From Candidatus Edwardsbacteria bacterium (GTDB lineage Bacteria > Edwardsbacteria > AC1 > JBFLXN01): a stretch of DNA of 12,346 bases. Under the pieces are notes generated by a model. That model ran no database searches and was not told the DNA's origin. It worked only from the letters and a program-made list of their open reading frames with translations. This document shows positions 1 to 12,346 of this stretch, piece after piece. The position numbers and the translations under genes are program-made. The stretch is taken from the NCBI GenBank assembly GCA_040755715.1, contig JBFLXN010000014.1:1-12346 (forward strand), read 5' to 3'. Numbering within the stretch: position 1 is the stretch's first letter; every line of letters starts with the position of its first letter.

Positions 1-331
1 CGAAATCCTCGGTTTTTACTAAAATTGCACCTCTTTGGATAAGCTTCGATATAATTTCATAATTTTTGCTGCCACCTTTCAGTCCCTCCTCAAGTATCTT
101 CTGGCCCATAGCCCCATCTGCAACCATTCCATCCTGATACACCTTAAAGTTAGCCACCTCTAATTTCTCAAAATATCTGGCTATTGAATCCCAGAAGCCA
201 GAGATAGTTTCTCTATGTTGCTTCCAAAACTTCTCCCCGAAACCTGCAATACCTCTTTTGTCCACCTGCCTAGCAATACTTCCAAGATCGGCACTCATGT
301 GGATGATTGGAACATAGATTAATTTTCGCAT
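1..331 (-). CDS. hypothetical protein, N-terminal 110 codons (gene continues past the left edge)
   Basis: This ORF is absent from the supplied track because it has no stop inside the window. Manual minus-strand translation from the ATG at 331-329 gives MRKLIYVPIIHMSADLGSIARQVDKRGIAGFGEKFWKQHRETISGFWDSIARYFEKLEVANFKVYQDGMVADGAMGQKILEEGLKGGSKNYEIISKLIQRGAILVKTEDF, open to position 1. The ATG overlaps the TAA of the upstream ORF (TAATG). No family recognised. Confidence 0.5.
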   Translation of the reverse strand, partial: MRKLIYVPIIHMSADLGSIARQVDKRGIAGFGEKFWKQHRETISGFWDSIARYFEKLEVANFKVYQDGMVADGAMGQKILEEGLKGGSKNYEIISKLIQRGAILVKTEDF

Positions 332-597
332 TATTTTCCTAATCCTTTAGCTTTTATTAAAAGTTCTGCTGTCTGTTTACGCAGGGTAGATATGGTTCTG
401 CAATTTTTACAATCCTCGTTTTTCTCATCATATTTTTCACAAGACAAAAGCATCTCCACCTCTTTCTTTAAGTGACTCGCCCTTTCGGCTTTATCAGTTA
501 CTGCCTTTGCCTCGTTGATATCGCGGGTCAATTCTTTAATGGTCCATTCCCTTTTTAGAAATATAGGGCACTTTATCTCTGGTTTTGGTTCTGCCAT
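331..597 (-). CDS. small hypothetical protein (88 aa, 4 Cys, charged and helical-looking)
   Basis: Track ORF. Its ATG at 597-595 overlaps the upstream TGA by 1 nt (TGATG), and its TAA overlaps the next ATG (TAATG), so it is translationally coupled on both sides. No family recognised. Confidence 0.55.
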   Translation of the reverse strand: MAEPKPEIKCPIFLKREWTIKELTRDINEAKAVTDKAERASHLKKEVEMLLSCEKYDEKNEDCKNCRTISTLRKQTAELLIKAKGLGK

Positions 598-1502
598 CAG
601 CGTTTAACCTCTGGGATCTGTTTTTCGCTTCCTAACTTCTGCAATCTGACCTCCAATATATTATTATGGTATCTTCTCACAATTCCTTCGCTGTCAACTT
701 TTGCTGGAAGAGAAACCTCTTCATAGTAGTTAGATTCGGGAGTTTTACAAGAGACGGTAAGTCTATCTTCATCTACCCCTAATAATATATCCTCTTCCTG
801 GGCACCTTTTAATTCCATAATGATGTTTAGATGGTCGCCTTCATCAAAGATATCCAATAACAATTCCTCTTTATCTTTTTTTAATTTATCCCCTCCGATA
901 ATCCACCAGCTAAACATAACTTTCTTTCCTGTGGATTCATCAATCTTACATCTTTGGAATACTAAAACCGGAAAACCTATCAGCTCTTGAGCCGTTGGAT
1001 TAATAATATTTCTTACCCTGTGGAGAATATCCATATGATTTGGCGCATTATAGCTGTGAGCCAATTCGTCAATGGTGGCATGTCTATTTTGCCAGACAAA
1101 AAGAAGTATATTTTGGCTCTCAGGATCTAACTCTTTGGCAATCTTATCTATTCCCTCTTGATTTATTTCCAATAGGCTTCTTTCAAATATCTTATTTTTC
1201 CACATCTCTACATCTTTTACCATAATCCAGGCCTTTGAAGCAGTTGCACCGCCTTGATTTCTATAAGAGATACAAAGGGCGTCCTTACTTCTTAATGTAA
1301 AACCCCTCTGTTGAATGCTGATTCCTTTTATATTTTCTAAGGACGTCTGGAATATAATCCTCGCCGGCTGCCAAAGAAAAAGCCTCAGGTTAGTCAGGTA
1401 CAGATGCCCTGGTTTCCAGCCGCTGCGTAGATTATCTTTGTAAAAACCCGGATCGCTTAGTATAACCTCTTCATTCGCTTTTAATTCAGGCTTATTTTTC
1501 AT
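597..1502 (-). CDS. PH/GRAM-like domain plus possible winged-helix module plus C-terminal alpha-crystallin (Hsp20) domain fusion protein
   Basis: The track ORF is 597-1598, and the codon at 1598 is TTG. The N-terminal motif GWKPGHLYLTNLRLFLWQ resembles bacterial PH/GRAM (G-x-LY-x-T-x-x-RL). The C-terminus, LLLDIFDEGDHLNIIMELKGAQEEDILLGVDEDRLTVS...VRRYHNNILEVRLQK, reads as an alpha-crystallin domain. The start is uncertain. ATG 1502 gives an 11-nt overlap with the upstream ORF. ATG 1565 is preceded by GGAAAG. TTG 1598 is the longest option. Confidence 0.8.
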   Translation of the reverse strand: MKNKPELKANEEVILSDPGFYKDNLRSGWKPGHLYLTNLRLFLWQPARIIFQTSLENIKGISIQQRGFTLRSKDALCISYRNQGGATASKAWIMVKDVEMWKNKIFERSLLEINQEGIDKIAKELDPESQNILLFVWQNRHATIDELAHSYNAPNHMDILHRVRNIINPTAQELIGFPVLVFQRCKIDESTGKKVMFSWWIIGGDKLKKDKEELLLDIFDEGDHLNIIMELKGAQEEDILLGVDEDRLTVSCKTPESNYYEEVSLPAKVDSEGIVRRYHNNILEVRLQKLGSEKQIPEVKR

Positions 1503-1767
1503 CTTTTCTGTAGTGTTTATAAGTAAAACCTGGATGTCTTGCACCACCGGGTTTGTTATCTTCATATTCTTTCCGTTTATATTTTGACCTTTTATCAAAT
1601 TCTACCCCTGTAGAATGTATTATCTGGGCATCTTCACCAGTTGAGTATTTAACCGAATATCTTCTTCTCTTTTTTGCCCACTCATCCCAGTCCATAGCTG
1701 TGGAGTGTCTCACCTTTGTGCCGCGGCCAGTAGAATACCCTGAAGTTTTAGGTGTCTTGGATTTCAT
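1492..1767 (-). CDS. small basic protein with four [HY]-S-T-[GA] repeats (hypothetical)
   Basis: ATG at 1767, preceded by AAGGGATAA (SD-like). The ORF fills what would otherwise be a ~180-nt gap in a compact operon. The motif occurs four times as GYSTG, HSTA, KYSTG and HSTG. Its codons differ mostly at wobble positions (CAT/TAC/CAC/TAT; TCT/TCA/TCC/TCT; ACA/ACT/ACA/ACT; GGG/GGT/GCT/GGC), which argues for selection at the protein level. Confidence 0.55.
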   Translation of the reverse strand: MKSKTPKTSGYSTGRGTKVRHSTAMDWDEWAKKRRRYSVKYSTGEDAQIIHSTGVEFDKRSKYKRKEYEDNKPGGARHPGFTYKHYRKDEK

Positions 1768-1782
1768 TTATCCCTTTTTTTC

Positions 1783-2355
1783 CTATTTCCATTTCCAATT
1801 ACAGGTCTTCCAATCATCAGGCACAGAAGGATGGTCTAAAATTCCTGTTTTCCCGCCTGCGTTATCAGTCTCCTTGACTACGTCCTCCTCGTCGACTTTG
1901 GGACTTTGCGGGGCAGGGGACGGAGCTTCCTCACATGGTTCATCTTGAGAGGAATCGAGGGCTTCAGCTGCTTCTTCCTCTTCTACGACCTCTTCGAAGA
2001 CTATCCCGCATTTCGGACAAACTGTTGTGTTTTCTTTTACGGCTGTGCCACAGCTCACACATTCATATCCTTCTATCTCTTCTACTTCTTTTTTGGTCTC
2101 TTCAGTGCCCATACTACCTCCAAGTTCTTTCTCGCCCTCGCCTTCGCCCTTAACCTGTTCTTCTCCCAAGGAAGTAATCCTGTATAAAGCAAACCTACCG
2201 GGCGAAAGCCTTTCTATATACCCTTTCTCCCACAATTTTTTGCATATATCATAGGCATAATTTATTGTAACCCTTAAGTTCCCGGCAATAGTTACGGTAT
2301 TTCCCTGTTTAATTTCCTTAAATTTTTCTAAAATCTTTTTCTCGTTAGGGGTCGT
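1783..2355 (-). CDS. winged-helix DNA-binding domain plus acidic linker plus zinc ribbon protein (putative regulator); non-canonical or damaged start
   Basis: The track ORF 1783-2235 begins at an internal TTG. The frame stays open upstream to the TAA at 2361-2359. That upstream part encodes the rest of a complete wHTH: TPNEKKILEKFKEIKQGNTVTIAGNLRVTINYAYDICKKLWEKGYIERLSPGRFALYRITSLGEE. A perfect SD, AAGGAGGT, lies at 2368-2361, with ACG 6 nt downstream at 2355-2353. There is no ATG, GTG or TTG between 2358 and 2236. The zinc ribbon is CVSCG-x11-CPKCG. Confidence 0.6.
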   Translation of the reverse strand, partial: TTPNEKKILEKFKEIKQGNTVTIAGNLRVTINYAYDICKKLWEKGYIERLSPGRFALYRITSLGEEQVKGEGEGEKELGGSMGTEETKKEVEEIEGYECVSCGTAVKENTTVCPKCGIVFEEVVEEEEAAEALDSSQDEPCEEAPSPAPQSPKVDEEDVVKETDNAGGKTGILDHPSVPDDWKTCNWKWK

Positions 2356-2405
2356 CTTTTACCTCCTTATGTTCTTGGTTATTATTCTATCCTTATGCCA
2401 ACATT

Positions 2406-2858
2406 TCAATATTCGATAGATACAGATTTCCACTTCTTTTCGGCTCTACTCCCTTTGCCTTGGCGCCCTACTTTTTCTTGAAGAGTAGTCAATCTATTGG
2501 GTCCACGATTACGAATTACCAACCACGACCCACGAGTAGGTCCAGATAATTTAATCTCGGCTCGAGAGTGAGGTCCGAGTTTTGTCTCCTCTAACACATC
2601 ACCTTCTAAGGTAAGCCTTCCATTTTCATCTATCCTGCCTTGACTTTCCATCATAGTAACTTCGAACTGTGAAAGGCGCGGGACCATGCTTTGCAGATGA
2701 TAAACAATCAAATATGGCCACCGCATGCTTCCTTTAATCCTTACTACTTTAATTCCCACTGGGCTTGCGAGATTTAATCCCGCTTCCCTTCGAATATTCG
2801 AAGGAATAGATAATCTACCCTCTTCATCAATTTCGCTAAATCCTTTTAACAGCGGCAT
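2406..2858 (-). CDS. tandem AbrB/SpoVT/MraZ-like (swapped-hairpin) domain protein, putative DNA-binding
   Basis: There are two copies of the D-x-x-GR-L/I signature. The first is [21 protein letters not shown] and the second is [21 protein letters not shown]. The ATG at 2858 overlaps the Hsp70 gene end by 23 nt. Confidence 0.7.
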
Positions 2859-4602
2859 CTTTTGTTTCTATCTTTAGATTTCTCTTTATCCGTTTAAACG
2901 CATTATAGACAATCTCAACCAGCTTTCTTAATTCATCAATTTTTACCCTGGTCTCTTTATATTCACCCTTGGATAAAGTTGTCTTTATTGCCAGGATTAG
3001 TTTCTCTATTTTTTCTACATCTGACCTATCTATTAGACCCTCTCCTTCTTCCAGAACCATCTCTGCTGCTTGTATCATACTTTCCGCTCGAATGCCCATT
3101 TGAATCTCTTCTTTTCGCTTTTGGTCTTCCTTGGCATGAATTCGGGCATCTTCTATCATCTCGTTAATCTGGTCCTTGGTCAGCCGGGAAGAAGAACTGA
3201 TCTGGATACTTTTTTCATTATCGGTATGTAAATCCAAGGCTCTGACTTGTAAAATCCCATTGGCATCTATATGGAATGTCACCTCAATCTGAGCTTCACC
3301 CCTTCGACCGGGTGGAATATCAGTAAGCTCAAACTTACCCAGACTTATATTATCGAAGCTCAGGAATCTCTCTCCCTGCAAGACATGGATATCGACCTGA
3401 GTCTGGTTATCTTTAGCTGTCGTAAATATCTGACTGCTGGATGTAGGAATGGTGGTATTTCTTTCTATGATCTTAGCAAATATCCCTCCCTCAGTCTCAA
3501 TTCCTAAAGAAAGGGGAGTAACGTCTAACAATACCACATCTTTTATTTCCCCAATCAAGATATTGGCTTGAATTGCTGCGCCAAGAGCCACTACCTCATC
3601 CGGATTTATATCCTTATAAGGTTCTTTGCCCAGAAGCTCTCGAGCGAGCTTTTGCACAGCAGGCATTCTGGTGGAGCCTCCTACCAAAACTACCCTGTCT
3701 ATCTGGCCGGGGTTGAGCTTTGCATCAGAAAGGACCTGTTTAGTAGGCTCTATCATCTTCTCTAATAAATCCCTGGTTAGCTCTTCAAACTGCTCTCTAC
3801 TCATAGTCAGATGCAGATCCATATCTTGTATGAGAAATGGGATTCTGATATCTGCAAACCTTTTTGTGGAAAGTTCTTTTTTTGCCTTCTCTGAAGCCTC
3901 TTTCAACCGCTGTAAAGCCACCCTATTTCTTCTTACATCCACTCCATGCAACTTCTGAAAATTATCAGCCAAATAATCCATTATCCTCTGGTCCCAATCA
4001 TCTCCGCCAAGATGTGTATTTCCCCCTACTGCCTTCACCTCAAACACGCCATTGCCCAACTCTAAAATAGATACATCGAAAGTGCCTCCACCCAAATCCC
4101 ATATTAGAATATAGTGTATATCCTGCTTGTGTAAGCCGTAGGCCAGGGAAGCAGCAGTAGGTTCATTTATAATCCGCATTACCTCTAATCCGGCTAAGGC
4201 GCCTGCCTCCATAGTCGCCTGGCGCTGGTTATCATTAAAATATGCAGGAACTGTAATTACTGCTTTCTCTATTTTCTCGCCCAAATAATCTTGCGCATCT
4301 TCCTTGACCTTACGAAGGATTAAGGCCGAAATCTCTTGGGGGGTAAATTTTCTCTCGTCAATCTCTACCCCATAATCAGTGCCCATCCGACGTTTAATAG
4401 ATGCAATGGTACGTTCTGGATTTGCAACTGCCTGGGTTCTGGCAAGATTGCCTATCAGCTGCCTCCCTCCATCGGCAAAGGCAACCACTGAAGGAGTAAG
4501 CCTTCCGCCTTCAGCATTGGGTATAATCTCAGGCCTCCCATTGTTTATAAAGGCGGCTACTGAAAAGGTAGTGCCTAAATCTATTCCTATTACCTTACTC
4601 AT
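2836..4602 (-). CDS. dnaK: Hsp70/DnaK-family chaperone paralog (588 aa)
   Basis: Hsp70 motifs present: [56 protein letters not shown] substrate-binding domain ([13 protein letters not shown]) and a helical lid are also present. The true start is the ATG at 4602-4600 ([12 protein letters not shown]), in an ATGA overlap with the upstream stop. The 34-aa extension in the track lies inside the upstream gene. Confidence 0.93.
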
Positions 4603-5672
4603 TTGGCTACCTGGGCTATTTTCTTCTTTAACCGTGGGCTGACCCAGCCGCAGTTTACGCAACCCTTTTCTAATAGCTCTAAGGCGTTTGCCTTTTTTCC
4701 GCATTGAGGGCAGGCTTCTGTTCTTTCTCTAAATGATATGATTCGGGTAAGCGCCCTCTCCCACTCATACATTCCCTCTCCTGAAAAAGAGGCAACCTTT
4801 CTTTGAGAACCACCTTCACCCAGCCCTTGCGCGCAAGAGCTGGGTTCATATATTACGTCAAAGACCTTTTTCTTCTTTAATACCGGGCTCAAATTCCTTA
4901 CATCTATAGCAGAACCTAATATCTTTTCTGAAGGGACTTCAAAAGCCAATCTCTTTTCAAAATCATACCACCAGCATAATCTCTTATTTGTTATATACAG
5001 ATGACCGGGCTTCCAGATACCATCTGATGAGGCCATATGCCAGGCCTTGCCCTTGTGAGTAATCGTTTCTCCTTCTGTCAGGAAATCTAATGTCTCTTCC
5101 TCATATTCGGGTAGAATAAGGTTTTCATCAATTATAAGTCCGCCTAACTTTATCGCCTCTTTTATAGACTCACCTAATTTATCTATCTCCACAGACCGCA
5201 GACGCGCTAATCTATCATCCTTAAGAATAAGTAAGAGCGTATCTTCTTGTATCAAGAGCCCCTTTATCTCATCTAAAGAGGTTTGAAACATCACTTCATT
5301 AAGCTCTTGATTCATGAGCAGCAGTCTTTTATCAGTTAAATAAATCTGCCCCGGTCTCCAACTAACATAGATTCCTTTGGCATAAAAAAAAGAGCCCAAC
5401 ATCTTAAGTTTAAGCTCTTCTCCCTGGATTAAAGAAATCTCTTTTTTAGCTCTATTATCTTTTTCCCAGGCGCGAATCTTCTCATCCCATGCCTTCATCA
5501 TGCCATACTCGAGCATAGTCTCCATGCCGGCCAGGGCGGCTCTTAAATTAACACCGATTAAAGGGATGCCCGCCACAGAGATGATAATGTCAGCGTTGAT
5601 CACCAACCCCTTATCCAGGACCCTATCCAATAAATCAACCAATGTGACCCGTGCATCTCTGGTTGGCTCCAT
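4599..5672 (-). CDS. GvpA/J/M-family (GvpM-like) N-terminal domain fused to two PH/GRAM-like domains and a C-terminal zinc ribbon
   Basis: The N-terminus [49 protein letters not shown] matches the gas-vesicle structural core (LxxVxDRxLDKGxV...). Two PH-like motifs follow, [15 protein letters not shown] and [16 protein letters not shown]. The C-terminus is [25 protein letters not shown]. The ATG at 5672 is preceded by AAGGAG. Confidence 0.85.
4815..4848. repeat. second copy of the 26-bp palindrome (one mismatch), flanked by direct ttca, inside the GvpM-like fusion CDS
   Basis: cccagcccttgcgcgcaagagctggg lies at 4819-4844, with ttca at 4815-4818 and 4845-4848. Element plus one flank is 30 nt, or 10 codons, so it is in frame. 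It encodes [10 protein letters not shown]. Confidence 0.7.
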
Positions 5673-5691
5673 ATGTCGCTTCGCTCCTTTA

Positions 5692-5733
5692 TCAGAATTC
5701 AGAAGTCAGATTTTTCTATCCTCTGTCCTCTGT
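5692..5733. promoter_or_regulatory. two sets of tandem heptamers in the 85-nt gap upstream of the GvpM-like fusion gene
   Basis: TCAGA occurs at 5692, 5699 and 5706, with a 7-bp period. cctctgt occurs twice in tandem at 5720-5733. Confidence 0.25.
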
Positions 5734-5757
5734 TACCTGTTTTTCTATGCTTTGGCT

Positions 5758-6522
5758 TTAGGCGAATGAGTATGGTGGCCAGGGGCCTGTAAATCGAACG
5801 ATCAACCCATTTTCTTTTTTAATCTTTTCTAAAACTTCGCCAAGCCTTTTGACATTTTCCTTAGCAACCAAACAGGATAAGTTCATGATCATCTGTAAGT
5901 TCTCATCTACTTTTTTAGCCTTATCTATATGAATATCAAAAACTTCTTTCTTTATCCGAGCATAAAAGTCCTTAAAATATTCATCGGCCTTTTTTCCCAT
6001 CTCTTTCCTTAATAGATTCTTTATCTTCTCTTCATACATATAGGCTGTGCCCGGTGGTTTAGACTTCAACTCCTCTTTCAAATTCTTAATCTCTGGGCTA
6101 TCTTCGGCTATTCTTTCAACCATAACCTTGGGATCCCATAAAATCTGGACTCCATATTCTTCTTTGCCCTTGACTTTATTTAATCTTTCTTTTAGATTCT
6201 GGTAATCTTTTTGCAGCCACTTTTTCATATTTTCTTTCGGGTCTATGCCTTCTTCGCCAATAATTATGGTATCAAATGCCAGAGGCAGGACAGTACCAAA
6301 CCTCTGCCAGGCATAATCCACTACCTTCTGGTGAGTCATTACCCAACCTTTTACAATATCTTTATCTTCTGATTCGTAGGGGTGAGGTTCACAGTTGTGA
6401 ACAACGGCTGAAATTTCCTGGTATGGAAGAGTGTAAACGTTGCTCCCATCAATTCCAATCTCACCCAGGCTTACCTTTTCGTTGCCATCAGCTATGCAGT
6501 AGAGATATATACCGTCGTTCAC
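5758..6522 (-). CDS. gvpF: gas vesicle protein GvpF/GvpL family
   Basis: N-terminus GIYLYCIADG, then VLPLAFDT, then C-terminal FTGPWPPYSFA, which together are typical of GvpF/L. The preferred start is the GTG at 6522-6520. It forms a GTGA overlap with the gvpK stop and is preceded by AAGGAGA with an 8-nt spacer. The track's ATG at 6549 lacks an SD and overlaps gvpK by 31 nt. Confidence 0.88.
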   Translation of the reverse strand: MNDGIYLYCIADGNEKVSLGEIGIDGSNVYTLPYQEISAVVHNCEPHPYESEDKDIVKGWVMTHQKVVDYAWQRFGTVLPLAFDTIIIGEEGIDPKENMKKWLQKDYQNLKERLNKVKGKEEYGVQILWDPKVMVERIAEDSPEIKNLKEELKSKPPGTAYMYEEKIKNLLRKEMGKKADEYFKDFYARIKKEVFDIHIDKAKKVDENLQMIMNLSCLVAKENVKRLGEVLEKIKKENGLIVRFTGPWPPYSFA

Positions 6523-6836
6523 TTGGCTGTCTCCTTTATTTTTTCCCATCTCGTGGGATTAGCTATTTTATCTATAACATCGTTGACTATATTATCTAAA
6601 CCATCTCTCACTGATTGAACTGCCTCACCAACCCCTTGTTCCTCTTTTATATGCTCTATTGCGACGTCGAGTTCCTTAAGCGCTCTACCCAGACGTTCTA
6701 TCTCTTCTTCGTTTAGGCTTCCACCCTCCATTCGCTTTACCGCCTGAAGTTTAAGGGCATCTCTGATTATTTCAACCAAGGCAAGCACAAGGCCTAAAAC
6801 ACCGCTTTTAAGATTATCTTCATTGATATCTATCAT
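6519..6836 (-). CDS. gvpK: gas vesicle protein GvpK
   Basis: GLVLALVEIIRDALKLQAVKRMEGGSLNEEEIERLGRAL matches the GvpK core as I remember it. The ATG forms an ATGA overlap with the upstream stop. Confidence 0.88.
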   Translation of the reverse strand: MIDINEDNLKSGVLGLVLALVEIIRDALKLQAVKRMEGGSLNEEEIERLGRALKELDVAIEHIKEEQGVGEAVQSVRDGLDNIVNDVIDKIANPTRWEKIKETAK

Positions 6837-7420
6837 TTTTCTATTTTTACTTCTAAAATCCCATTCTTGTATGTTTTTTCTAGTTTTCCTTTAGATTCGC
6901 AGGGTAGTTTTAATTGCTGATGGTACTTGCGATCAGGAATATCTACTGATATTGCAAGGCTGTCTTTGACTAAATCAATTTTTATATCCTTTTCTTCAAT
7001 GCCTGGTATTTCAGCAATCACTTTAATATGATCTTCCTCATCAAAGATATCCGCTGGCCGCTCTTGAGGTGTTGGAGGGGGTGAGGGTTTTACTTCTGGT
7101 CTCTGTTTAGCAAAAGGTTTTCCTCTAAAGGCCCTTCCTCTTATGCCCGGAGGGATGCCGCCGGGGATACCCGAAGGCCTTCCTTCAGCTCTTTTCAAAG
7201 GGGCTTCTTTTATCTTACGCTCCACCTCTTTATCAACCTCCTTAAGCCTCTCTTTGAAAGCCGGGGATTTCTCCAGGCCTTTAATTAATCCCCCTAATCC
7301 GGGAATTACCTTGCCCAGACCTTTAAGTATTCCTCCTGCTACACTTTCAGATTCTTTTTCTCCCGCCTCGGGCGGGACATCCTCTGGTCGCTTTTTGTCT
7401 TTATCTTCTTTACCGGTCAT
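6833..7420 (-). CDS. Hsp20/alpha-crystallin domain protein with a long Gly/Pro-rich N-terminal region
   Basis: The C-terminus reads as an alpha-crystallin domain: DIFDEEDHIKVIAEIPGIEEKDIKIDLVKDSLAISVD...LEKTYKNGILEVKIEK. The N-terminal region carries G-rich repeats (GGILKGLGKVIPGLGGLIKGLEK, GIPGGIPPGIRG). The ATG at 7420 is preceded by AAAGGTG. Confidence 0.85.
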   Translation of the reverse strand: MTGKEDKDKKRPEDVPPEAGEKESESVAGGILKGLGKVIPGLGGLIKGLEKSPAFKERLKEVDKEVERKIKEAPLKRAEGRPSGIPGGIPPGIRGRAFRGKPFAKQRPEVKPSPPPTPQERPADIFDEEDHIKVIAEIPGIEEKDIKIDLVKDSLAISVDIPDRKYHQQLKLPCESKGKLEKTYKNGILEVKIEK

Positions 7421-7468
7421 ATTCTACACCTTTCTTTAGCTTTACTTGTTAAGCTGCTAGCTTATTTC

Positions 7469-7819
7469 TCATTCTGCCTTTATATCTTTTGCCTTGGCGC
7501 TTACCCAGCCACACCAGGGACAGCCCTCATCAAGTAATTCTTCTGCCAGAACTTTTTTGCCGCACTGTGGACAAAGTTCTTTACCCTTCATGGCTTCTTT
7601 CCAGGCTTCTGTTTCCACATTAGTCCCTGATGGAAACTCAAGGCCATACTTTGCTGCTGTCTCAAAAGAAGCCAGGGCTGCCCTTATCTTAATTCCCAAA
7701 AGCTCTACTCCGGCAACAGATATGGCGATATCCGCATTAATCACCAGGCCTTTGTCTAAAACCCGGTCTATGACATCAACCAAAGTAACACTTGCATCTT
7801 TTGTCGCTTCTATTGCCAT
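7469..7819 (-). CDS. gvpJ: gas vesicle structural protein, GvpA/J/M family (GvpJ-like), with a C-terminal zinc ribbon
   Basis: [53 protein letters not shown] is the gas-vesicle core, and it looks J-like from memory of the haloarchaeal GvpJ sequence. The C-terminus is CPQCGKKVLAEELLDEGCPWCGWVS. The ATG at 7819 is preceded by AAGGAGG with an 8-nt spacer. Confidence 0.88.
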   Translation of the reverse strand: MAIEATKDASVTLVDVIDRVLDKGLVINADIAISVAGVELLGIKIRAALASFETAAKYGLEFPSGTNVETEAWKEAMKGKELCPQCGKKVLAEELLDEGCPWCGWVSAKAKDIKAE

Positions 7820-7832
7820 TTCTATTGCCTCC

Positions 7833-8225
7833 TTACCCCGCTACTACACCTTGGCCTTTACATTTGGGGCAAGCCACTGGATGAGGTTTGCGCGGATATA
7901 CCCCACTTCCATTGCAAGTGGTGCATTTTTTAGAAGGTGTCATCCTTGTAACCACCCCTACCCCACCACAGGCTAAACAGTGTATGCGACTTGTAGTATA
8001 TGGGTCTATTCCCTTGCCACCACAAAAATTGCATTTCATTGTCGGGCCAATAATTCTCACCTTACCTTTTCCTAAACACACCTGGCAATCAGAAAGCTTA
8101 GATAAAAGCTGAAAAGGATCTTTTCCTATTCCATTACAAAAGGCGCATATAACTTCCACTTTATTTTTTTCTATTCGCCTAAGCTCCTCAGGTGCAATCG
8201 TAGCCCATTTTGGTTTTTTAGCCAT
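7833..8225 (-). CDS. DnaJ-type cysteine-rich zinc-finger protein with six CxxCxGxG repeats and no J domain
   Basis: Six repeats: CAFCNGIG, CQVCLGKG, CNFCGGKG, CLACGGVG, CTTCNGSG, CPKCKGQG. No HPD motif is present. The ATG at 8225 is preceded by GAGGAGGTG. Confidence 0.85.
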   Translation of the reverse strand: MAKKPKWATIAPEELRRIEKNKVEVICAFCNGIGKDPFQLLSKLSDCQVCLGKGKVRIIGPTMKCNFCGGKGIDPYTTSRIHCLACGGVGVVTRMTPSKKCTTCNGSGVYPRKPHPVACPKCKGQGVVAG

Positions 8226-8262
8226 CTTTCACCTCCTCACCTTCGGCTGGTCGGGGTTAGCA

Positions 8263-8320
8263 GTTATTAGTTATAAGTTATGTATTTTTAACTGATAACT
8301 TATAACCCGTAATCCATAAC
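8263..8320. promoter_or_regulatory. inverted arrays of GTTAT/ATAAC half-sites with 7-bp phasing (operator-like); includes a 12-bp perfect inverted repeat and a candidate promoter
   Basis: gttat occurs at 8263, 8270 and 8277; ataac occurs at 8295, 8302 and 8316. The perfect inverted repeat is gttataagttat (8270-8281) paired with ataacttataac (8295-8306), with a 13-nt loop. On the minus strand, TTATCA (8298-8293), a 17-nt spacer and TATAAC (8275-8270) resemble -35 and -10 boxes. The site lies in the 100-nt gap upstream of the zinc-finger gene. Confidence 0.35.
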
Positions 8321-8325
8321 TTTTT

Positions 8326-8901
8326 TTACCTTCTCTTCTTCTTGGGTTTCCCTTTGGTCTCTTTAGTCTTCTCCTTTATCTCTTCTTTTTCCTCCAAATC
8401 TTTTATGCGCTTCTTAAGTTCTGCCTCTTTTGTCTTAAAATCATCCCCAGTTATTTCAGCTCTCTCAAAACGCATTTTAAGCTCGAGGATTTCTTCTTCT
8501 AAGGCGACCTTAGGGTCTTTTTCTTCTTCAGCCTGCGCTCCCACTGCGGCAGTGATTCCTTTGACCATCTCTACTGGTTGATATGGCGCTGAAATTAGCT
8601 TACCCAAGAATCTAAATAACCCTATATCCTTTGGCCGTTCCAACTTGCGCCTTCTAATGGCTGGTACATTAGATATTCCCCATTTCTTAGTTGGCATCAT
8701 ACCCCAATATTTGGGAATAGTAATATTGGGTTTAGCGCTTACTAGGGGAATAGGTTTAGAAACCAAGGGAATCTCTTTACTAACCAGCGGAATAGCGCTT
8801 GCTACTTGGGGCATAGCCTTACTAACCGATGGTAAGCTACCCGCAGTAAAAGGAATGAATTTGGCTTCTTTCTTGTTAGATTTTTTCTTTTTGGGAGACA
8901 T
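8326..8901 (-). CDS. GvpG-like protein with an N-terminal [ILM]P-x-V-[SA]-K heptad-repeat extension and a Lys-rich tail
   Basis: The C-terminal half, LFRFLGKLISAPYQPVEMVKGITAAVGAQAEEE...LEEEILELKMRFERAEITGDDFKTKEAELKKRIKDLEE, parallels the canonical GvpG at 11444-11728. Compare LELKMRFERAEI here with LELQMRFEMGEV there. The N-terminal repeats are LPSVSKA, MPQVASA, IPLVSKE, IPLVSKP and IPLVSAKP. Confidence 0.78.
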   Translation of the reverse strand: MSPKKKKSNKKEAKFIPFTAGSLPSVSKAMPQVASAIPLVSKEIPLVSKPIPLVSAKPNITIPKYWGMMPTKKWGISNVPAIRRRKLERPKDIGLFRFLGKLISAPYQPVEMVKGITAAVGAQAEEEKDPKVALEEEILELKMRFERAEITGDDFKTKEAELKKRIKDLEEKEEIKEKTKETKGKPKKKRR

Positions 8902-8930
8902 CTTCCCTCCGCTCTTTTTTATATTTATAT

Positions 8931-10895
8931 TTATCCATATATTTCCTTAGAAAAATCCTTTAATCGGTCAATACCTTTGATCTGATAAGGGAAAAGCGGC
9001 AGCTGACCAATTTGATATTGCGAAGACCTTTCCCTCTCTATTTCCTGGATAATCTTAATCTGCTCACCTCTTTTTGACTCGCAAAAATTACATCTAGTTT
9101 TCGGAAGAATCATATTAACCAGAATATAATGAGAGGGGATGTTAAGTCGCTTAAGGTTCTCAAGGAGGCCGTCCATCTCACTCTTGCCCATAGCCTCTGG
9201 AATACCTACAACCACAAATTGACACCTCGCCGGATCTGTGAGAATCTCCTGTATTTTTCTCACCTTCTTAGAAAACTCTATCATCTCTTCAGCCTGTTTG
9301 GCCAATCGTACTATCCCCTTATATTTTATAAGTAATTTAAATATTGCATTTAGCCACTCCCTGGCAACCTGAGGCATCTCTAGAAACCGCAATAGGTGTC
9401 CTGTAGCTGCTGAATCTAAGATATATATATCAAATTTTCCTCCATCTATAAATTCCACCACCTTAGCTAAAGCCATAATCTCATCCAAACCGGGAGGAGT
9501 AAGTGAGATAAGTTCCTCTAAAATCTCCCTATCGAACTTAACATCCACTCCACCTCCGATAAATTTACTAAATACCTCGCTTATTTGGTCTTTATAATCC
9601 TTTTTAAAATTCTCAAGCAACTTCAAAGCATCTATCTCCAGGGCAAATAGATTATTGGGGACAGTCTCCTTCGGGGACAGTCCCCCTATCTGAGTGAGAT
9701 TATCTCCAATAGATAGACCAAAACTATCGGATAGCGAATGGGCAGGGTCGGTAGAAAAGACTAAGACTTTTTTAGAGGGGTATTTTTTGGCCATACTAAG
9801 TGCAGTGGCTGAAGCTATGGATGTTTTACCCACCCCACCTTTTCCCCCAAATATATATAATATAATGCCTTTCTCTATTAATTGAGGCAATTTAATAATA
9901 GAGAAAATCTTAGACTTGAAATCAAAAGGTTTCTTTCCAATGGGAAGGCGATGTGGCTTCTCTTCAAATAAAACCTGGGCATATTCCTTTAGTCGATCCA
10001 TCCCTCTGATTTGATATGGAAATATCGGTATCTGATGAAGTTCGAGATTTGCGAATTTTTGCCTGATTATATCTAATTCTTTCTTTTGTTCTTTCTCTTC
10101 CTTAGAACAAAAGGGACACCTGTTTTGACTACTTTTAATTTGATTGACGATAATAGATTTCACTGAAATTCCATATCCTTTTAATATCGCCAACAACCTT
10201 TCTGTCTCTTCTATAGCCAAGGTCTCGGGTTTAGTGACAGGTATAAATTCTGTTGAATCGCGGTTCTTTAGTAACCGACTTACTCTATCCACGTCGCTTT
10301 TCACCATCTCTAAAAATTCATCAGCGTCGTCTTTTTTGTATTTGCCAGCAAAATGGCTGGCTAAAAATCTATGCTTAGATTGCATCAAATCTAAAACTTC
10401 GACCCACTTTTTCATCTGAAGGGGTAAACCTAAAAGCCTTATGGTATGTCCTGTAGGTGCGGTGTCCAAGATGATTAAATCGTATTTCTCTTCTCTTAAG
10501 ATATTAGCTATTTTTATAACCGCCATTATCTCATCTAACCCTGGAATAGAAAGGGAAAAGAAATTCTCTATATCTTGCCTGTCGAAATAAGTTCCTCTCT
10601 CAACGATCTTTTTCATCACCAAATCATATTTCTTTTTAAAAAGAGAGGCCTCTTCCTCAGCTTTTATTTCTAAAGCCCAAAGATTGTTTAAATCTTTTAT
10701 GGGTGTAATGGTATTACCAACAGTATAGCCCAAACTATCACCCACTGAATGAGCAGGGTCACAGGATACAATCAAAATCCTCTGCTTGGGATAATGTTGG
10801 GCTAAATAAAGGCCAGTAGCAGTCGCTGATGTAGTTTTTCCGCAACCCCCCTTTCCACCAAAGATTATTAGACGCCGCTTCTCGCTGATTTTCAT
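8931..10895 (-). CDS. tandem-fused ArsA/Get3 (TRC40)-family ATPase (654 aa, two homologous halves)
   Basis: Half 1 has GGKGGCGKTT, CDPAHSVGDSLG, DTAPTGHTIRLLGLP and a CPFC motif. Half 2 has GGKGGVGKTS, TDPAHSLSDSFG, DSAATGHLLRFLEMP and a CNFC motif. Each half ends in a matching tail: IPIFPYQIRGMDRLKEY in half 1 and LPLFPYQIKGIDRLKDF in half 2. ATG at 10895. Confidence 0.92.
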   Translation of the reverse strand: MKISEKRRLIIFGGKGGCGKTTSATATGLYLAQHYPKQRILIVSCDPAHSVGDSLGYTVGNTITPIKDLNNLWALEIKAEEEASLFKKKYDLVMKKIVERGTYFDRQDIENFFSLSIPGLDEIMAVIKIANILREEKYDLIILDTAPTGHTIRLLGLPLQMKKWVEVLDLMQSKHRFLASHFAGKYKKDDADEFLEMVKSDVDRVSRLLKNRDSTEFIPVTKPETLAIEETERLLAILKGYGISVKSIIVNQIKSSQNRCPFCSKEEKEQKKELDIIRQKFANLELHQIPIFPYQIRGMDRLKEYAQVLFEEKPHRLPIGKKPFDFKSKIFSIIKLPQLIEKGIILYIFGGKGGVGKTSIASATALSMAKKYPSKKVLVFSTDPAHSLSDSFGLSIGDNLTQIGGLSPKETVPNNLFALEIDALKLLENFKKDYKDQISEVFSKFIGGGVDVKFDREILEELISLTPPGLDEIMALAKVVEFIDGGKFDIYILDSAATGHLLRFLEMPQVAREWLNAIFKLLIKYKGIVRLAKQAEEMIEFSKKVRKIQEILTDPARCQFVVVGIPEAMGKSEMDGLLENLKRLNIPSHYILVNMILPKTRCNFCESKRGEQIKIIQEIERERSSQYQIGQLPLFPYQIKGIDRLKDFSKEIYG

Positions 10896-10949
10896 CTGCG
10901 TTCATCTGATTTCCGGTGATATCTACGTTTATCTACGTTATTCTACTTC
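10891..10949. repeat. 10-bp-phased direct repeats spanning the gvpO end and the ATPase start
   Basis: ttcatctg occurs at 10891 and 10901. atctacgtt occurs at 10921 and 10931, with a degenerate ttctacttc at 10941. The first pair duplicates the ATG context (CAGATGAA twice on the minus strand). Confidence 0.4.
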
Positions 10950-11207
10950 AACTGTCTCGGTATCCGCCCTCTTTCTTAACCTTGTCCGATTAAATTCCAT
11001 TACATTGCCATCGTCATCCAAAATTACCTCATAGGTGGCTAAGATATCCATCTGGTCAGGAATGGAGTGCTTTTCTATCATCTCCATAGTAACCTTCCAG
11101 CCTTTTTCATCCTTAGCCGCCCCTAAAGTAGTAGAAAGTTCCAGTCCTGTAAACCTACTCAATTCCTCACGAGCCTTCTCAATAATCTGTTGCATTGTCT
11201 TCGCCAT
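10938..11207 (-). CDS. gvpO: gas vesicle protein GvpO
   Basis: The pattern AREELSRFTGLELSTTLGAAKDEKGWKVTMEMIEKHSIPDQMDILATYEVILDDDGNVMEFNRTRLRKR matches my recollection of the GvpO family (...G-W-x-V-x-x-E-x-x-E...P...D-x-LA-x-YEV-x-LD..G.......R). The ATG is preceded by AAGGAGGT with a 7-nt spacer. Confidence 0.82.
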   Translation of the reverse strand: MAKTMQQIIEKAREELSRFTGLELSTTLGAAKDEKGWKVTMEMIEKHSIPDQMDILATYEVILDDDGNVMEFNRTRLRKRADTETVEVE

Positions 11208-11232
11208 CTTTTATACCTCCTTTTTTAAAAAG

Positions 11233-11439
11233 TTATAGTTTCCTTTTAATCTTAGCCCCACAGGAAGGGCAGAATGCATAACCATAAATATACCGCCACC
11301 TTGCCCCACATTCCTGACATTCGATATTTAAGGGTTCTCCGCATTCTGAACAAAACCGCAGATTCCCCCAGGTTACACTTCCGCATCGAGGGCACCTAAA
11401 TGCACCTTTTGGTAGTGCTGGTTCTATTCTTTCTTCCAC
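11233..11439 (-). CDS. double zinc-ribbon protein (68 aa)
   Basis: Four CxxC pairs: CPRCG, CSECG, CQECG, CPSCG. The GTG start at 11439 is preceded by GGAGGTG with a 5-nt spacer. Confidence 0.72.
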   Translation of the reverse strand: MEERIEPALPKGAFRCPRCGSVTWGNLRFCSECGEPLNIECQECGARWRYIYGYAFCPSCGAKIKRKL

Positions 11440-11443
11440 ATTC

Positions 11444-11728
11444 TCACCTCCTCTCCTCTTTGTATTTCCTGATTGCCTCTAATCTTTCCAGGATTTTTCC
11501 TTCTTTCTTTTTATATTCCTCTTCGTTCACCTCGCCCATCTCAAAGCGCATCTGAAGTTCTAGCAACTCTTCCTGCACTTTAGACTCATCGGTCACCTCA
11601 GTCTCGGCTGTCTCCTTTAGTTTATTTCCGATCCATACCACCCCCTTTATAGGCAACAAAAAAGGCAATAAAATATCGGTTAATCCAAAACCCGATCCTT
11701 TAGAACCACTCTCAGGCTTTTCCTTCAC
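11444..11728 (-). CDS. gvpG: gas vesicle protein GvpG
   Basis: LTDILLPFLLPIKGVVWIGNKLKETAETEVTDESKVQEELLELQMRFEMGEVNEEEYKKKEGKILERLEAIRK fits the GvpG pattern. The present start is the GTG at 11728-11726, in a GTGA overlap created by the inserted element. See the findings for details. Confidence 0.85.
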   Translation of the reverse strand: MKEKPESGSKGSGFGLTDILLPFLLPIKGVVWIGNKLKETAETEVTDESKVQEELLELQMRFEMGEVNEEEYKKKEGKILERLEAIRKYKEERR

Positions 11729-12020
11729 CCCGCCCTTCCTTTCCTTGCAATGCCAAGTCTAGATTTTAATCTTGCCAAACCACTTCCGAACTTCTTCAAG
11801 CTTTTTTCCCTTTCAAATGCCACATCTTTAGATCTATAGGCCTCAAAATATATTAACTCCACTGGTAACATCTTTCTAGTTGAATATATCTTTCCTTGCT
11901 TATGCTCCATTAACCTTTTTTTCAAGTTATTCGTACATCCTATATAAATCCAGTCTTTAACTTTACTACTGAGTAAATATATATAATGCCAATTAGGCTT
12001 TTTAGGAAGGGCGGGGTTCA
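11724..12020 (-). mobile_element. putative miniature autonomous element: TTCA | 12-bp TIR | GIY-YIG ORF | 12-bp TIR | TTCA
   Basis: The plus strand has ccccgcccttcc at 11728-11739 and its perfect reverse complement ggaagggcgggg at 12005-12016. Direct ttca copies flank these at 11724-11727 and 12017-12020. The ORF start (xTG) and stop (TGA) both fall within the flanking TGAA copies. Confidence 0.5.
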
Positions 12021-12021
12021 C
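11725..12021 (-). CDS. small GIY-YIG nuclease family protein (98 aa)
   Basis: WHYIYLLSSKVKDWIYIGCTNNLKKRLMEHKQG...ELIYFEAY...AFEREKSLKK carries the GIY/YIG motifs, the conserved Arg, the Glu and the RE-x-x-x-K signature. Start is the GTG at 12021 and stop is the TGA at 11727-11725. The ORF is bounded by 12-bp inverted repeats. Confidence 0.85.
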   Translation of the reverse strand: MNPALPKKPNWHYIYLLSSKVKDWIYIGCTNNLKKRLMEHKQGKIYSTRKMLPVELIYFEAYRSKDVAFEREKSLKKFGSGLARLKSRLGIARKGRAG

Positions 12022-12176
12022 CCTGCCCTTCCTTTTCTCGCAATGCCAAGCCTATATTCAATTTGGCTAAACTGTTTTTGCATTTCTTTAAAATCTTTGC
12101 CCTGCCCTTAAGCTTAAAATGTGGGATTTACCCAGCCCTTGCGCGCAAGGGCTGGGTTTAGGAAGGGCGGGGTTCA
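12017..12176 (-). mobile_element. degenerate, internally deleted tandem copy of the GIY-YIG element
   Basis: The TIRs are ccctgcccttcc at 12021-12032 (one mismatch) and ggaagggcgggg at 12161-12172, with flanking ttca at 12017-12020 and 12173-12176. The copy keeps the first 7 codons (ATG AAC CCC GCC CTT CCT AAA = MNPALPK). It also keeps the last 11 codons plus stop (RLGIARKGRAG*), which differ from the intact copy only synonymously. Its interior is disrupted by stops and a 26-bp palindrome. Confidence 0.45.
12127..12160. repeat. 26-bp perfect palindrome cccagcccttgcgcgcaagggctggg flanked by direct ttta
   Basis: The palindrome spans 12131-12156 and is exactly self-complementary. Direct ttta copies sit at 12127-12130 and 12157-12160. 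It is GC-rich in an AT-rich context. Confidence 0.7.
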
Positions 12177-12346
12177 TAACTTTCTCCTTCAAGTACAATT
12201 ACTAATTCTACAAAGTTACATGGAGGTACAGGTCCAACGTATTTGAACTTTATCCTTCCATCATAAATTGTGCTTAGTCTATCTACTAATCTATCAAATT
12301 CTTCCACCCGGGGCTTTTCTACCAAGAAAGCTAAGTTTGTTATCAT
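12158..12346 (-). CDS. gas vesicle protein GvpF/GvpL family, C-terminal 62 codons (gene starts beyond the right edge)
   Basis: LAFLVEKPRVEEFDRLVDRL...IKFKYVGPVPPCNF parallels the FTGPWPPYSF end of the other GvpF/L gene. The last codons (YEPRPS) and the stop lie inside inserted repeat sequence. Confidence 0.82.
   Translation of the reverse strand: MITNLAFLVEKPRVEEFDRLVDRLSTIYDGRIKFKYVGPVPPCNFVELVIVLEGESYEPRPS

Follow-up and report, generated by a model that had tools for sequence, protein, structure and literature searches.

A DnaK-type Hsp70 of gas-vesicle gene clusters and its putative partner, a J-domain fusion of GvpF

Introduction

Bacterial Hsp70 systems that are dedicated to a single pathway follow a common logic, in which the Hsp70 gene lies in the operon of the pathway it serves and is joined by a pathway-specific J-domain protein, as in the HscA–HscB and HscC–DjlC pairs. 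The Hsp70 described here is encoded in a gas-vesicle (gvp) gene cluster on a 12,346-nucleotide stretch of DNA labeled Candidatus Edwardsbacteria (assembly GCA_040755715.1, contig JBFLXN010000014.1, positions 1 to 12,346; hereafter the window). Related clusters encode, in addition, a GvpL/F-family protein with a C-terminal J-domain, termed J-GvpF. The two would follow the logic of the known pairs: HscB binds IscU, and in the gvp system GvpF would bind GvpA-family proteins. Unlike in HscB and DjlC, the J-domain is attached to the C-terminus of a GvpL/F fold, a different scaffold.

Two-domain ArsA, Hsp20, and GvpN have been known in gvp clusters since Castillo & Saier 2010 (PMC2963123), and the arrangement of Hsp20 and two-domain ArsA beside gvpF/L, G, J/M, K, and O is common to those clusters and the window. 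Published interaction work identifies GvpF as the primary, transient partner of the hydrophobic part of GvpA2 and describes it as chaperone-like; GvpG later supersedes this contact, and GvpL scaffolds GvpJ, GvpS(M), and GvpK (PMC11445434). A J-domain fused to GvpF is in keeping with this proposed chaperone role. When assembly factors are lacking, GvpA production is proteotoxic (PMC12848028). The genome paper on Hakubella reports gvp genes with an adjacent hsp20 and does not mention DnaK (PMC7325909). In the literature covered, which was limited to open-access PMC and bioRxiv, so that silence is not proof of absence, no paper was found that describes an Hsp70, a DnaK, or a J-domain–GvpL/F fusion in gvp clusters.

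A further parallel comes from eukaryotes. In clathrin uncoating by auxilin and Hsc70, a J-domain on a coat-binding protein likewise recruits Hsp70 to a self-assembling coat. The likeness is one of analogy, since the auxilin system is eukaryotic, is unrelated in sequence, and disassembles a coat instead of building a gas-tight shell.

The window Hsp70 is of the DnaK type

Profile scores and sequence identities place the window Hsp70 among DnaK-type proteins and in neither the HscA nor the HscC family. It scores 792.4 bits against the NCBIfam DnaK model NF001413 (cutoff 648), with residues 1–571 aligned to positions 1–596 of the 625 in the model, and 714.6 bits against Pfam HSP70 (PF00012; cutoff 20.6). 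The canonical DnaK equivalog TIGR02350 is missed, at 774.3 bits against a cutoff of 822.55, as are both HscA models (TIGR01991, 595 bits against 708.55; NF003520, 586 against 620). Identity to the Escherichia coli proteins is highest for DnaK (48.6%), followed by HscA (40.3%) and HscC (39.0%), the most distant of the three. Profile scans find no isc genes in the window, and no DjlC-like gene was found near the Hsp70. The closest solved structure is DnaK of Geobacillus kaustophilus (PDB 2V7Y), matched with 663 bits over residues 1–502.

The protein had originally been predicted to be full length, and it indeed contains a nucleotide-binding domain, a linker, a substrate-binding domain, and a lid. 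In E. coli numbering, the catalytic residues D8, K70, E171, D194, T199, and D201 are present and are retained in at least 95% of the clade defined below. The allosteric residues P143 and R151, the J-domain interface residues R167, N170, and T173, and the linker residues L391 and D393 are each at least 94% conserved in that clade, and the interdomain linker itself reads [10 protein letters not shown]. In the substrate pocket, I401, T403, F426, A429, Q433, V436, and I438 are conserved and canonical for DnaK; the positions at which HscA and HscC differ (A429, V436, and the M404 region) are DnaK-like. The Hsp70 machinery is thus intact, and by its residues the protein should be a working, J-responsive chaperone with a binding site that is not obviously narrowed.

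In domain architecture, in its catalytic, allosteric, and J-interface residues, and in its pocket, the protein resembles the housekeeping DnaK of grpE–dnaK–dnaJ operons. The differences lie elsewhere. Lid and tail together measure 114 amino acids (aa) in the window Hsp70 and 131 aa in E. coli; the clade median is 108 aa, about 30 aa shorter than the 139 aa of housekeeping DnaKs. An insert of about 22 aa in the nucleotide-binding domain of housekeeping DnaKs is missing in 117 of 122 clade members, a trait shared with the DnaKs of Gram-positive bacteria and archaea. The clade is marked by T221V and N537I (E. coli numbering), and R56, the partner of E264 in the R56–E264 pair, is variable in the clade and is a threonine in the window protein, as in HscA.

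Two features that the original prediction had singled out do not set the protein apart. The GTTFS motif, which it contrasted with the GTTNS of DnaK, results from a phenylalanine at N13 that occurs in 70% of the clade, whereas a Hakubella-type subclade that is equally gvp-linked has GTTNS; GTTFS was therefore rejected as clade-defining. Eukaryotic Hsp70s have an aromatic residue at the same position (GTTYS). The basic C-terminal tail is variable across the clade and overlaps the next open reading frame (ORF), and its candidacy as a docking motif was rejected for these reasons.

Boundaries and overlaps of the hsp70 gene

The predicted coordinates of hsp70 stand, with the correction that the gene lies on the minus strand. 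The ORF spans 2836..4704, and an in-frame ATG at 4602 yields a protein of 588 aa with the N-terminus [18 protein letters not shown] and the C-terminus [19 protein letters not shown]. Translation starts at 4602 and not at the upstream ATG at 4704: the closest homologs are also 588 aa long, open with the same MSKVIG ([12 protein letters not shown]), and align over 100% of the query.

The gene upstream, which encodes a 357-aa GvpM-like fusion protein, ends in GTA GCC AAA TGA, and hsp70 opens with ATG AGT AAG, giving a 4-nucleotide ATGA overlap. This overlap, from which translational coupling had been proposed, is real in the window and is shared by its nearest relatives alone (L001 and L007). Elsewhere, hsp70 is separated from the GvpM-like gene by gaps of 9–50 nucleotides or by intervening GvpO, zinc-ribbon, or ArsA genes. 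Across relatives, hsp70 thus keeps its membership in the cluster but not a translational coupling with the GvpM-like gene. At its other end, the last 23 nucleotides of hsp70 overlap the start of the MraZ/AbrB-like gene, an overlap found identically in L002 and L008, so that the basic C-terminal tail is partly dual-coding.

A separate DnaK lineage linked to gvp genes

The window Hsp70 is 100% identical to a protein of a metagenome-assembled genome (MAG) at NCBI, annotated “molecular chaperone DnaK” and labeled Ca. Edwardsbacteria. Proteins of Nitrospirota MAGs follow at 97% identity, and relatives of 570–600 aa continue down to 62%, from MAGs labeled Nitrospirota, Thermodesulfovibrionales, Omnitrophica, Aminicenantes, Actinomycetota, and Ca. 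Hakubella, among others. All 11 relatives whose context was checked lie in gvp clusters and lack grpE and a full dnaJ there (identity 100, 97, 88, 88, 80, 68, 65, 65, 64, 64, and 62%); the gvp-context loci named in this identity range are L001–L010, L016, L094, and L095. Common to the gvp-linked loci is a core of GvpO, ArsA, GvpA-like, Hsp20, GvpK, GvpL/F, and GvpM-like fusion genes. Neither GrpE nor full-length DnaJ has a match in the window, L001–L010, or L016, where the only DnaJ match is the 51-aa J-domain of a fusion protein in L004.

At identities of 59% or less, the context changes. Among 76 such DnaKs, 72 adjoin grpE and/or a full dnaJ, and none has gvp neighbors; at the remaining four loci (L020, L054, L061, and L084), dnaJ was not seen, nor was grpE in three of them. 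Phylogeny, which was inferred by neighbor-joining only, reflects the same division. In a 90-taxon tree restricted to context-verified sequences, which includes the 76 DnaKs without gvp neighbors (72 of them grpE/dnaJ-linked) and E. coli references, the gvp-linked sequences are monophyletic in 170 of 200 bootstrap replicates. In contrast to housekeeping DnaK, the gvp Hsp70 forms a separate clade with a shorter lid and tail, never stands beside grpE or dnaJ, and is always found in gvp clusters. Two of the tests proposed with the original prediction, namely conservation of gvp synteny and separation from housekeeping DnaK, came out in its favor: synteny held over the whole range of 62–100% identity in all relatives that were inspected, and the gvp-linked proteins group apart from grpE/dnaJ-operon DnaKs. 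Its idea of a specialized Hsp70 gains support from both results, with the context pointing to a putative dedicated client. These data support a distinct DnaK sub-lineage that appears to travel with a particular type of gvp cluster in uncultured, mostly anaerobic bacteria of several phyla.

In a larger, 202-taxon tree, the smallest clade that holds all gvp-context sequences has 122 members, and L014 is its sole member outside a gvp context. L014 was rejected as a counter-example: it is a 5′-truncated copy (matching from query residue 79) at a contig end, with adjoining DUF772/DDE transposase ORFs. It represents a second gvp-type Hsp70 copy in the Actinomycetota MAG that also contains L010 (copy and transposase ORFs at 6643–8011 and 8115–9573), and is either disrupted by an insertion sequence or placed at an assembly junction. 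Four loci from MAGs labeled Vulcanimicrobiota and Synergistia (L029, L030, L071, and L080) carry tandem DnaK pairs in a grpE...dnaJ context, each copy 52–54% identical to the query, which represent an unrelated Hsp70 duplication.

Despite the Ca. Edwardsbacteria label, the proteins of the window cluster share 85–100% identity with their counterparts in Nitrospirota and Thermodesulfovibrionales MAGs. Either mis-binning or very recent transfer of the cluster across phyla could be the source, and the taxonomic labels of the MAGs may be unreliable.

J-GvpF, a GvpL/F protein with a J-domain

The original prediction stated that no grpE or J-domain gene is present near the Hsp70. This is correct for the window and does not hold for the cluster type, in which a GvpL/F–J-domain fusion is encoded further upstream; the window ends too early to include it. 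In L007, which contains a 97%-identical Hsp70, three GvpL/F genes (236–1276, 1292–2059, and 2035–2913) lie upstream of the point that corresponds to the window end. The first of these encodes a 346-aa protein with a C-terminal J-domain and HPD motif. Both this gene and its counterpart in L004 (3658–4698) match Pfam GvpL_GvpF (E=1e-52 to 1e-61) and DnaJ (E=1e-11 to 1e-14), and J-GvpF is present in the L002 and L094 clusters as well.

A database search for J-GvpF lists 120 protein clusters, 119 of which have both Pfam domains and 118 of which have the HPD motif; the two exceptions are truncated proteins. Their labels include Nitrospirota, Omnitrophica, Atribacteria, Ca. Scalindua, Dehalococcoidales, Marinimicrobia, and others, and all are annotated simply as “GvpL/GvpF family gas vesicle protein”. 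One of them, P0122, is 95% identical to the J-GvpF of L007. Its organism label, Ca. Edwardsbacteria, and its longest-contig value, 27,293 bp, are both those of the window Hsp70 (P0001), and it was found in the same Sequence Read Archive (SRA) run as L001. Given these shared metadata and the shared sequencing run, J-GvpF is very probably encoded on the contig of the window itself, shortly past base 12346.

An AlphaFold model of J-GvpF has a predicted local distance difference test (pLDDT) score of 91.5. The N-terminal part resembles 6L5D and 4QSG, two crystal structures of GvpF, with template modeling (TM) scores of 0.78–0.85, and its C-terminal 53–54 residues match J-domains at a root-mean-square deviation of 1.0–1.4 Å, including the DnaK-bound J-domain in 5NRO. 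For 15 Hsp70/J-GvpF pairs, matched by an identical longest-contig value, the pairwise-identity matrices are strongly correlated (r=0.956, Mantel p ~2e-4). The correlation reflects co-inheritance of the two proteins and not interaction.

Two syntenic loci with J-GvpF, L093 and L096, also encode a canonical GvpA of 68–70 aa, a GvpN-like ATPase, and a Cdc48-like ATPase, and have no Hsp70 within 10 kb. Upstream of J-GvpF in both lie the 68–70-aa Gas_vesicle protein and a 306–309-aa AAA_5 (GvpN-like) protein. These loci indicate that the J-domain fusion is more widespread and probably older than the cluster Hsp70, which would be an add-on in a subset of clusters.

A Cdc48-like double AAA+ ATPase of about 710–727 aa recurs in this type of cluster, usually just upstream of J-GvpF and beside an Hsp20. 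Other genes in related clusters encode B12-binding radical SAM, tubulin/FtsZ-family, and TPR proteins and a second, larger ArsA, and the Ca. Scalindua rubra cluster encodes a Volactin-family actin-like protein.

Proposed role and alternative explanations

Targeting J-domain proteins are typically built by joining a J-domain to a module that binds the client. Since GvpF binds GvpA and here carries a J-domain, J-GvpF may act as a client-specific J-domain protein that binds newly made, aggregation-prone proteins of the GvpA family, the clients to which the genomic context points. Client-loaded J-GvpF would then dock on Hsp70 and trigger ATP hydrolysis, and Hsp70 would clamp a hydrophobic segment, either to keep it soluble until insertion into the shell or to free it from GvpF in a hand-off or “uncoating” step. 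In doing so, Hsp70 may act beside the two small heat-shock proteins, the DnaJ-type zinc-finger protein, and the Get3-like ArsA of the cluster and, in relatives, the Cdc48-like AAA+ ATPase. That J-GvpF presents GvpA-family proteins to Hsp70 in this way, using the cluster's own copy where there is one, appears fairly likely. The Hsp70 probably has its role in gas-vesicle assembly instead of general protein folding.

Several observations weigh against this interpretation. The substrate pocket is that of a canonical DnaK, with no HscA-like sign of a narrowed client range, and neither adjacency to the GvpM-like gene nor the ATGA overlap is universal among relatives. The stem of the clade is short (0.0475), and identity ranges overlap, with a within-clade minimum of 60.5% and a maximum of 64.2% between clade and housekeeping proteins. 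In the 202-taxon tree, the exact clade membership recurs in 10 of 100 bootstrap replicates, and P0102, a gvp-linked protein, is placed just outside the clade. Two proteins inherited together in one cluster would be expected to diverge in parallel, as Hsp70 and J-GvpF do. L093 and L096 have no Hsp70 within 10 kb on either side of J-GvpF, which can presumably use the host DnaK there, so that the cluster Hsp70 may be dispensable or supplementary. Finally, no report of gas vesicles observed in these lineages was found in the literature covered.

Some of these points suit the view that the protein is an extra DnaK copy that works with the host's DnaJ and GrpE as a general proteostasis buffer and is not specifically paired with J-GvpF. 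It would raise overall chaperone capacity or, acting with the Cdc48-like ATPase and the small heat-shock proteins, clear aggregates of misassembled Gvp proteins. The canonical pocket, the short clade stem, and the loci with J-GvpF and no cluster Hsp70 (L093 and L096) are all compatible with such a role, as are the two small heat-shock proteins of the window, the Cdc48-like ATPases of L004, L092–L094, and L096, and the proteotoxicity of overexpressed GvpA. However, every Hsp70 cluster sequenced far enough upstream contains J-GvpF (L002, L004, L007, and L094), fifteen Hsp70/J-GvpF pairs could be matched, the J-interface residues are strictly conserved, and a J-domain fused to a client binder is the usual sign of targeted Hsp70 recruitment. 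A mere buffering function is thus unlikely, though it deserves serious consideration. The same evidence for a J-GvpF partnership would equally serve a remodeling or release mechanism, in which J-GvpF on a nascent vesicle, or on a GvpF/L–GvpJ/M/K nucleation complex, recruits Hsp70 and the scaffold is stripped off. The transient nature of the GvpA2–GvpF contact and its replacement by GvpG (PMC11445434) fit an active release step of this kind. The sequence data do not separate it from a holdase or hand-off function, and its basis is analogy with the uncoating of clathrin by Hsc70–auxilin and with HscA–HscB, which frees the cluster from IscU; it seems improbable.

Two further explanations can be given very little weight. 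According to one, the protein is an ordinary housekeeping DnaK, the organism's sole Hsp70, that lies beside gvp genes by chance. Its name at NCBI and its score above the NF001413 equivalog cutoff would agree with this, whereas the score below the TIGR02350 cutoff (774 against 822.55 bits), the absence of grpE and dnaJ nearby, the missing insert of about 22 aa, and the lid and tail that are about 30 aa shorter would not. Lineage and synteny also recur across MAGs labeled as several phyla, which fits a mobile cluster gene and not vertical inheritance, and single-cell genomes of Hakubella encode a GrpE outside the portion of the gvp cluster that was sequenced. It would be most surprising if a housekeeping role were the explanation. 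It is just as hard to believe that the Gvp-like proteins, with their zinc-ribbon and PH/GRAM fusions, build some structure other than a gas vesicle, which the Hsp70 would then serve. The shell-family proteins of the window, of 116 aa and 357 aa, are atypical and each carry a zinc ribbon, a short GvpA and GvpN are not in the window, and gas vesicles are unreported in these lineages in the literature found. Against this stand the presence of GvpF/L, GvpG, GvpK, and GvpO, the 68–70-aa GvpA and GvpN-like AAA_5 ATPase encoded in L093 and L096, and the independent annotation of Hakubella genomes with gvpAGHJKLMNOV (PMC7325909). Gene content and context suggest that the clusters probably build gas vesicles and that Hsp70 may pair physically with J-GvpF, the arrangement on which the proposed presentation of GvpA-family proteins to Hsp70 would depend.

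Gene content of the window

The window contains one compact, co-directional gvp-type cluster, with all credible genes on the minus strand and gene spacing from −31 to +184 nucleotides (Table 1). In transcription order, it begins with a GvpL/F gene cut by the window edge, followed by the GIY-YIG ORF, GvpG, the double zinc-ribbon protein, GvpO, ArsA, the GvpG-like protein, and the DnaJ-type zinc-finger protein. The second half comprises the 116-aa GvpA/J-like protein, Hsp20, GvpK, GvpL/F, the GvpM-like fusion, Hsp70, and the MraZ/AbrB-like protein, and the 3′ end comprises an acidic zinc-ribbon protein, the PH-like/Hsp20 fusion, and an 88-aa protein. Above Pfam cutoffs, the gvp core of the window consists of Gas_vesicle (two genes), GvpL_GvpF (two), GvpG (two), GvpK, and GvpO. 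Neither a canonical short GvpA (about 70 aa) nor the GvpN AAA+ ATPase is encoded in the 12,346 bases.

Table 1. Features of the window and of related clusters
Feature	Coordinates	Strand	Evidence and remarks
88-aa conserved protein, function unassigned	331..597	−	Distal end of the cluster; no family match; L002 homolog 91% identical
333-aa protein, PH/GRAM-like N-terminal region and C-terminal Hsp20 domain	597..1598	−	NCBIfam archaeal Hsp20 E=1.7e-19, below cutoff
Acidic zinc-ribbon protein		−	Between the MraZ/AbrB-like gene and the PH-like/Hsp20 fusion in transcription order
150-aa MraZ/AbrB-like protein, candidate DNA-binding regulator	2406..2858	−	MraZ sub-threshold only: Pfam E=1.2e-4, NCBIfam E=1.3e-4
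588-aa DnaK-type Hsp70	2836..4602	−	Pfam HSP70 E=1e-214; NCBIfam NF001413 792 bits
ATGA start/stop overlap, GvpM-like fusion gene and hsp70	4599..4602	−	Direct sequence reading
357-aa GvpM/J-like shell-family fusion	4599..5672	−	Pfam Gas_vesicle E=4.5e-17; weak GRAM
GvpL/F family protein, no J-domain	5758..6549	−	Pfam GvpL_GvpF E=4.2e-65
GvpK	6519..6836	−	Pfam GvpK E=7.7e-19
195-aa small heat-shock protein, Hsp20 domain C-terminal	6833..7420	−	Pfam HSP20 E=3.6e-5; NCBIfam archaeal Hsp20 E=1.6e-20, below cutoff
116-aa GvpA/J-like shell-family protein with C-terminal zinc ribbon (CPQC...CPWC)	7469..7819	−	Pfam Gas_vesicle E=9.4e-17
130-aa DnaJ-type zinc-finger protein, six CXXCXGXG repeats, no J-domain	7833..8225	−	Pfam DnaJ_CXXCXGXG E=4.1e-11; repeats counted by regular expression
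191-aa GvpG-like protein with N-terminal extension	8326..8901	−	Pfam GvpG E=1.9e-9
654-aa two-domain ArsA/Get3-type ATPase	8931..10895	−	Pfam ArsA_ATPase E=1.7e-139, two stretches
GvpO	10938..11207	−	Pfam GvpO E=1.6e-18
68-aa double zinc-ribbon protein	11233..11439	−	Pfam DZR E=4.3e-9
GvpG	11444..11728	−	Pfam GvpG E=6.8e-24
98-aa GIY-YIG ORF	11725–12021	−	Pfam E=3.7e-14; between GvpL/F gene and GvpG
GvpL/F, C-terminal end	12158..12346	−	Pfam GvpL_GvpF E=6.9e-11; gene cut at window edge
Cdc48-like ATPase, related clusters	L004 1482–3638; L092 7829–9982; L093 7849–9981; L094 13109–15253; L096 7547–9730		Would lie outside the window
Unexpected genes, related clusters	L005/L006 13474–17053; L002 17133–18563; L092 11599–12651		

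The window also encodes a DnaJ-type zinc-finger protein (8225–7833) that the original prediction had missed. A second, more distant copy of this CXXCXGXG protein follows hsp70 in L002, L003, L007, and L016. The modules of a class A DnaJ look split over separate cluster proteins, with stand-alone zinc-finger repeats on one and the J-domain on GvpF.

The 357-aa shell-family fusion is closest to GvpM at its N-terminus (97 bits to the NCBIfam halo GvpM model, below the cutoff of 109), continues with two GRAM/PH-like regions, and ends in a zinc ribbon (CPQC...CVNC). Syntenic homologs are present in L002–L010 and L093–L096. The 116-aa GvpA/J-like protein is 74–91% identical across related clusters. 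Both Gas_vesicle-family proteins of the window end in a shared zinc-ribbon module, CPQCGKK...GC(P/V)(W/N)CGWVS, which is 65% identical over 31 aa, and the PH-like region of the 357-aa protein recurs in the 333-aa Hsp20 fusion. Fusions of zinc-ribbon and PH modules to shell-family proteins are unusual. The 333-aa fusion, the second small heat-shock protein of the cluster, also gives weak matches to Pfam HSP20 and Vps36, and its homologs lie downstream of hsp70 in L002, L004, L005, L008, and L009.

The MraZ/AbrB-like gene likewise lies downstream of hsp70 in L002, L003, L005–L008, L016, and L095, and its 150-aa product is a possible regulator of the cluster. Homologs of the 68-aa double zinc-ribbon protein occur in L002, L007, L008, L010, L092, L093, and L094. 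The GIY-YIG ORF is absent from L007, where the flanking GvpL/F and GvpG genes overlap directly; its presence in the window therefore suggests a small GIY-YIG gene, possibly mobile, that inserted recently.

Promoter and terminator scans of the window were uninformative, with no excess over shuffled sequence (27 against 26.2 and 10 against 12.0, respectively). On the minus strand, no terminator-like site was found upstream of position 994, and thus none within the gvp–hsp70 stretch. A role in anti-phage defense was rejected, as PADLOC returned no match for the Hsp70 or its neighbors other than weak P-loop matches for ArsA.

Implications

How an extremely hydrophobic shell protein stays soluble and then enters the growing shell is an open question in gas-vesicle biology. 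A J-domain on GvpF together with a cluster-encoded Hsp70 gives rise to a concrete hypothesis, in which GvpF delivers GvpA-family proteins to Hsp70. If it is true, the fusion would provide direct genetic evidence for GvpF as a chaperone of GvpA. The generic database names of the two partners, “molecular chaperone DnaK” and “GvpL/GvpF family gas vesicle protein”, have hidden both of them.

On a wider reading, the chances of which we regard as evenly balanced, the cluster would encode a self-contained chaperone network for one organelle, with J-GvpF as a true J-domain co-chaperone, a dedicated DnaK paralog, and other chaperones of the cluster. The same joint reading, held with no more and no less conviction, would count among these the two small heat-shock proteins, the DnaJ-type zinc-finger protein, the Get3-like ArsA, and the Cdc48-like ATPase. 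We know of no earlier Hsp70/J-protein system dedicated to a prokaryotic organelle, and this one would be the first, if true.

The question also has a practical side: heterologous gas vesicles used as acoustic reporter genes are limited by proteotoxic stress and by clusters that fail to assemble. For the Hsp70 family, the finding would, if true, add a new pathway-dedicated bacterial Hsp70/J-protein pair beside HscA–HscB and HscC–DjlC.

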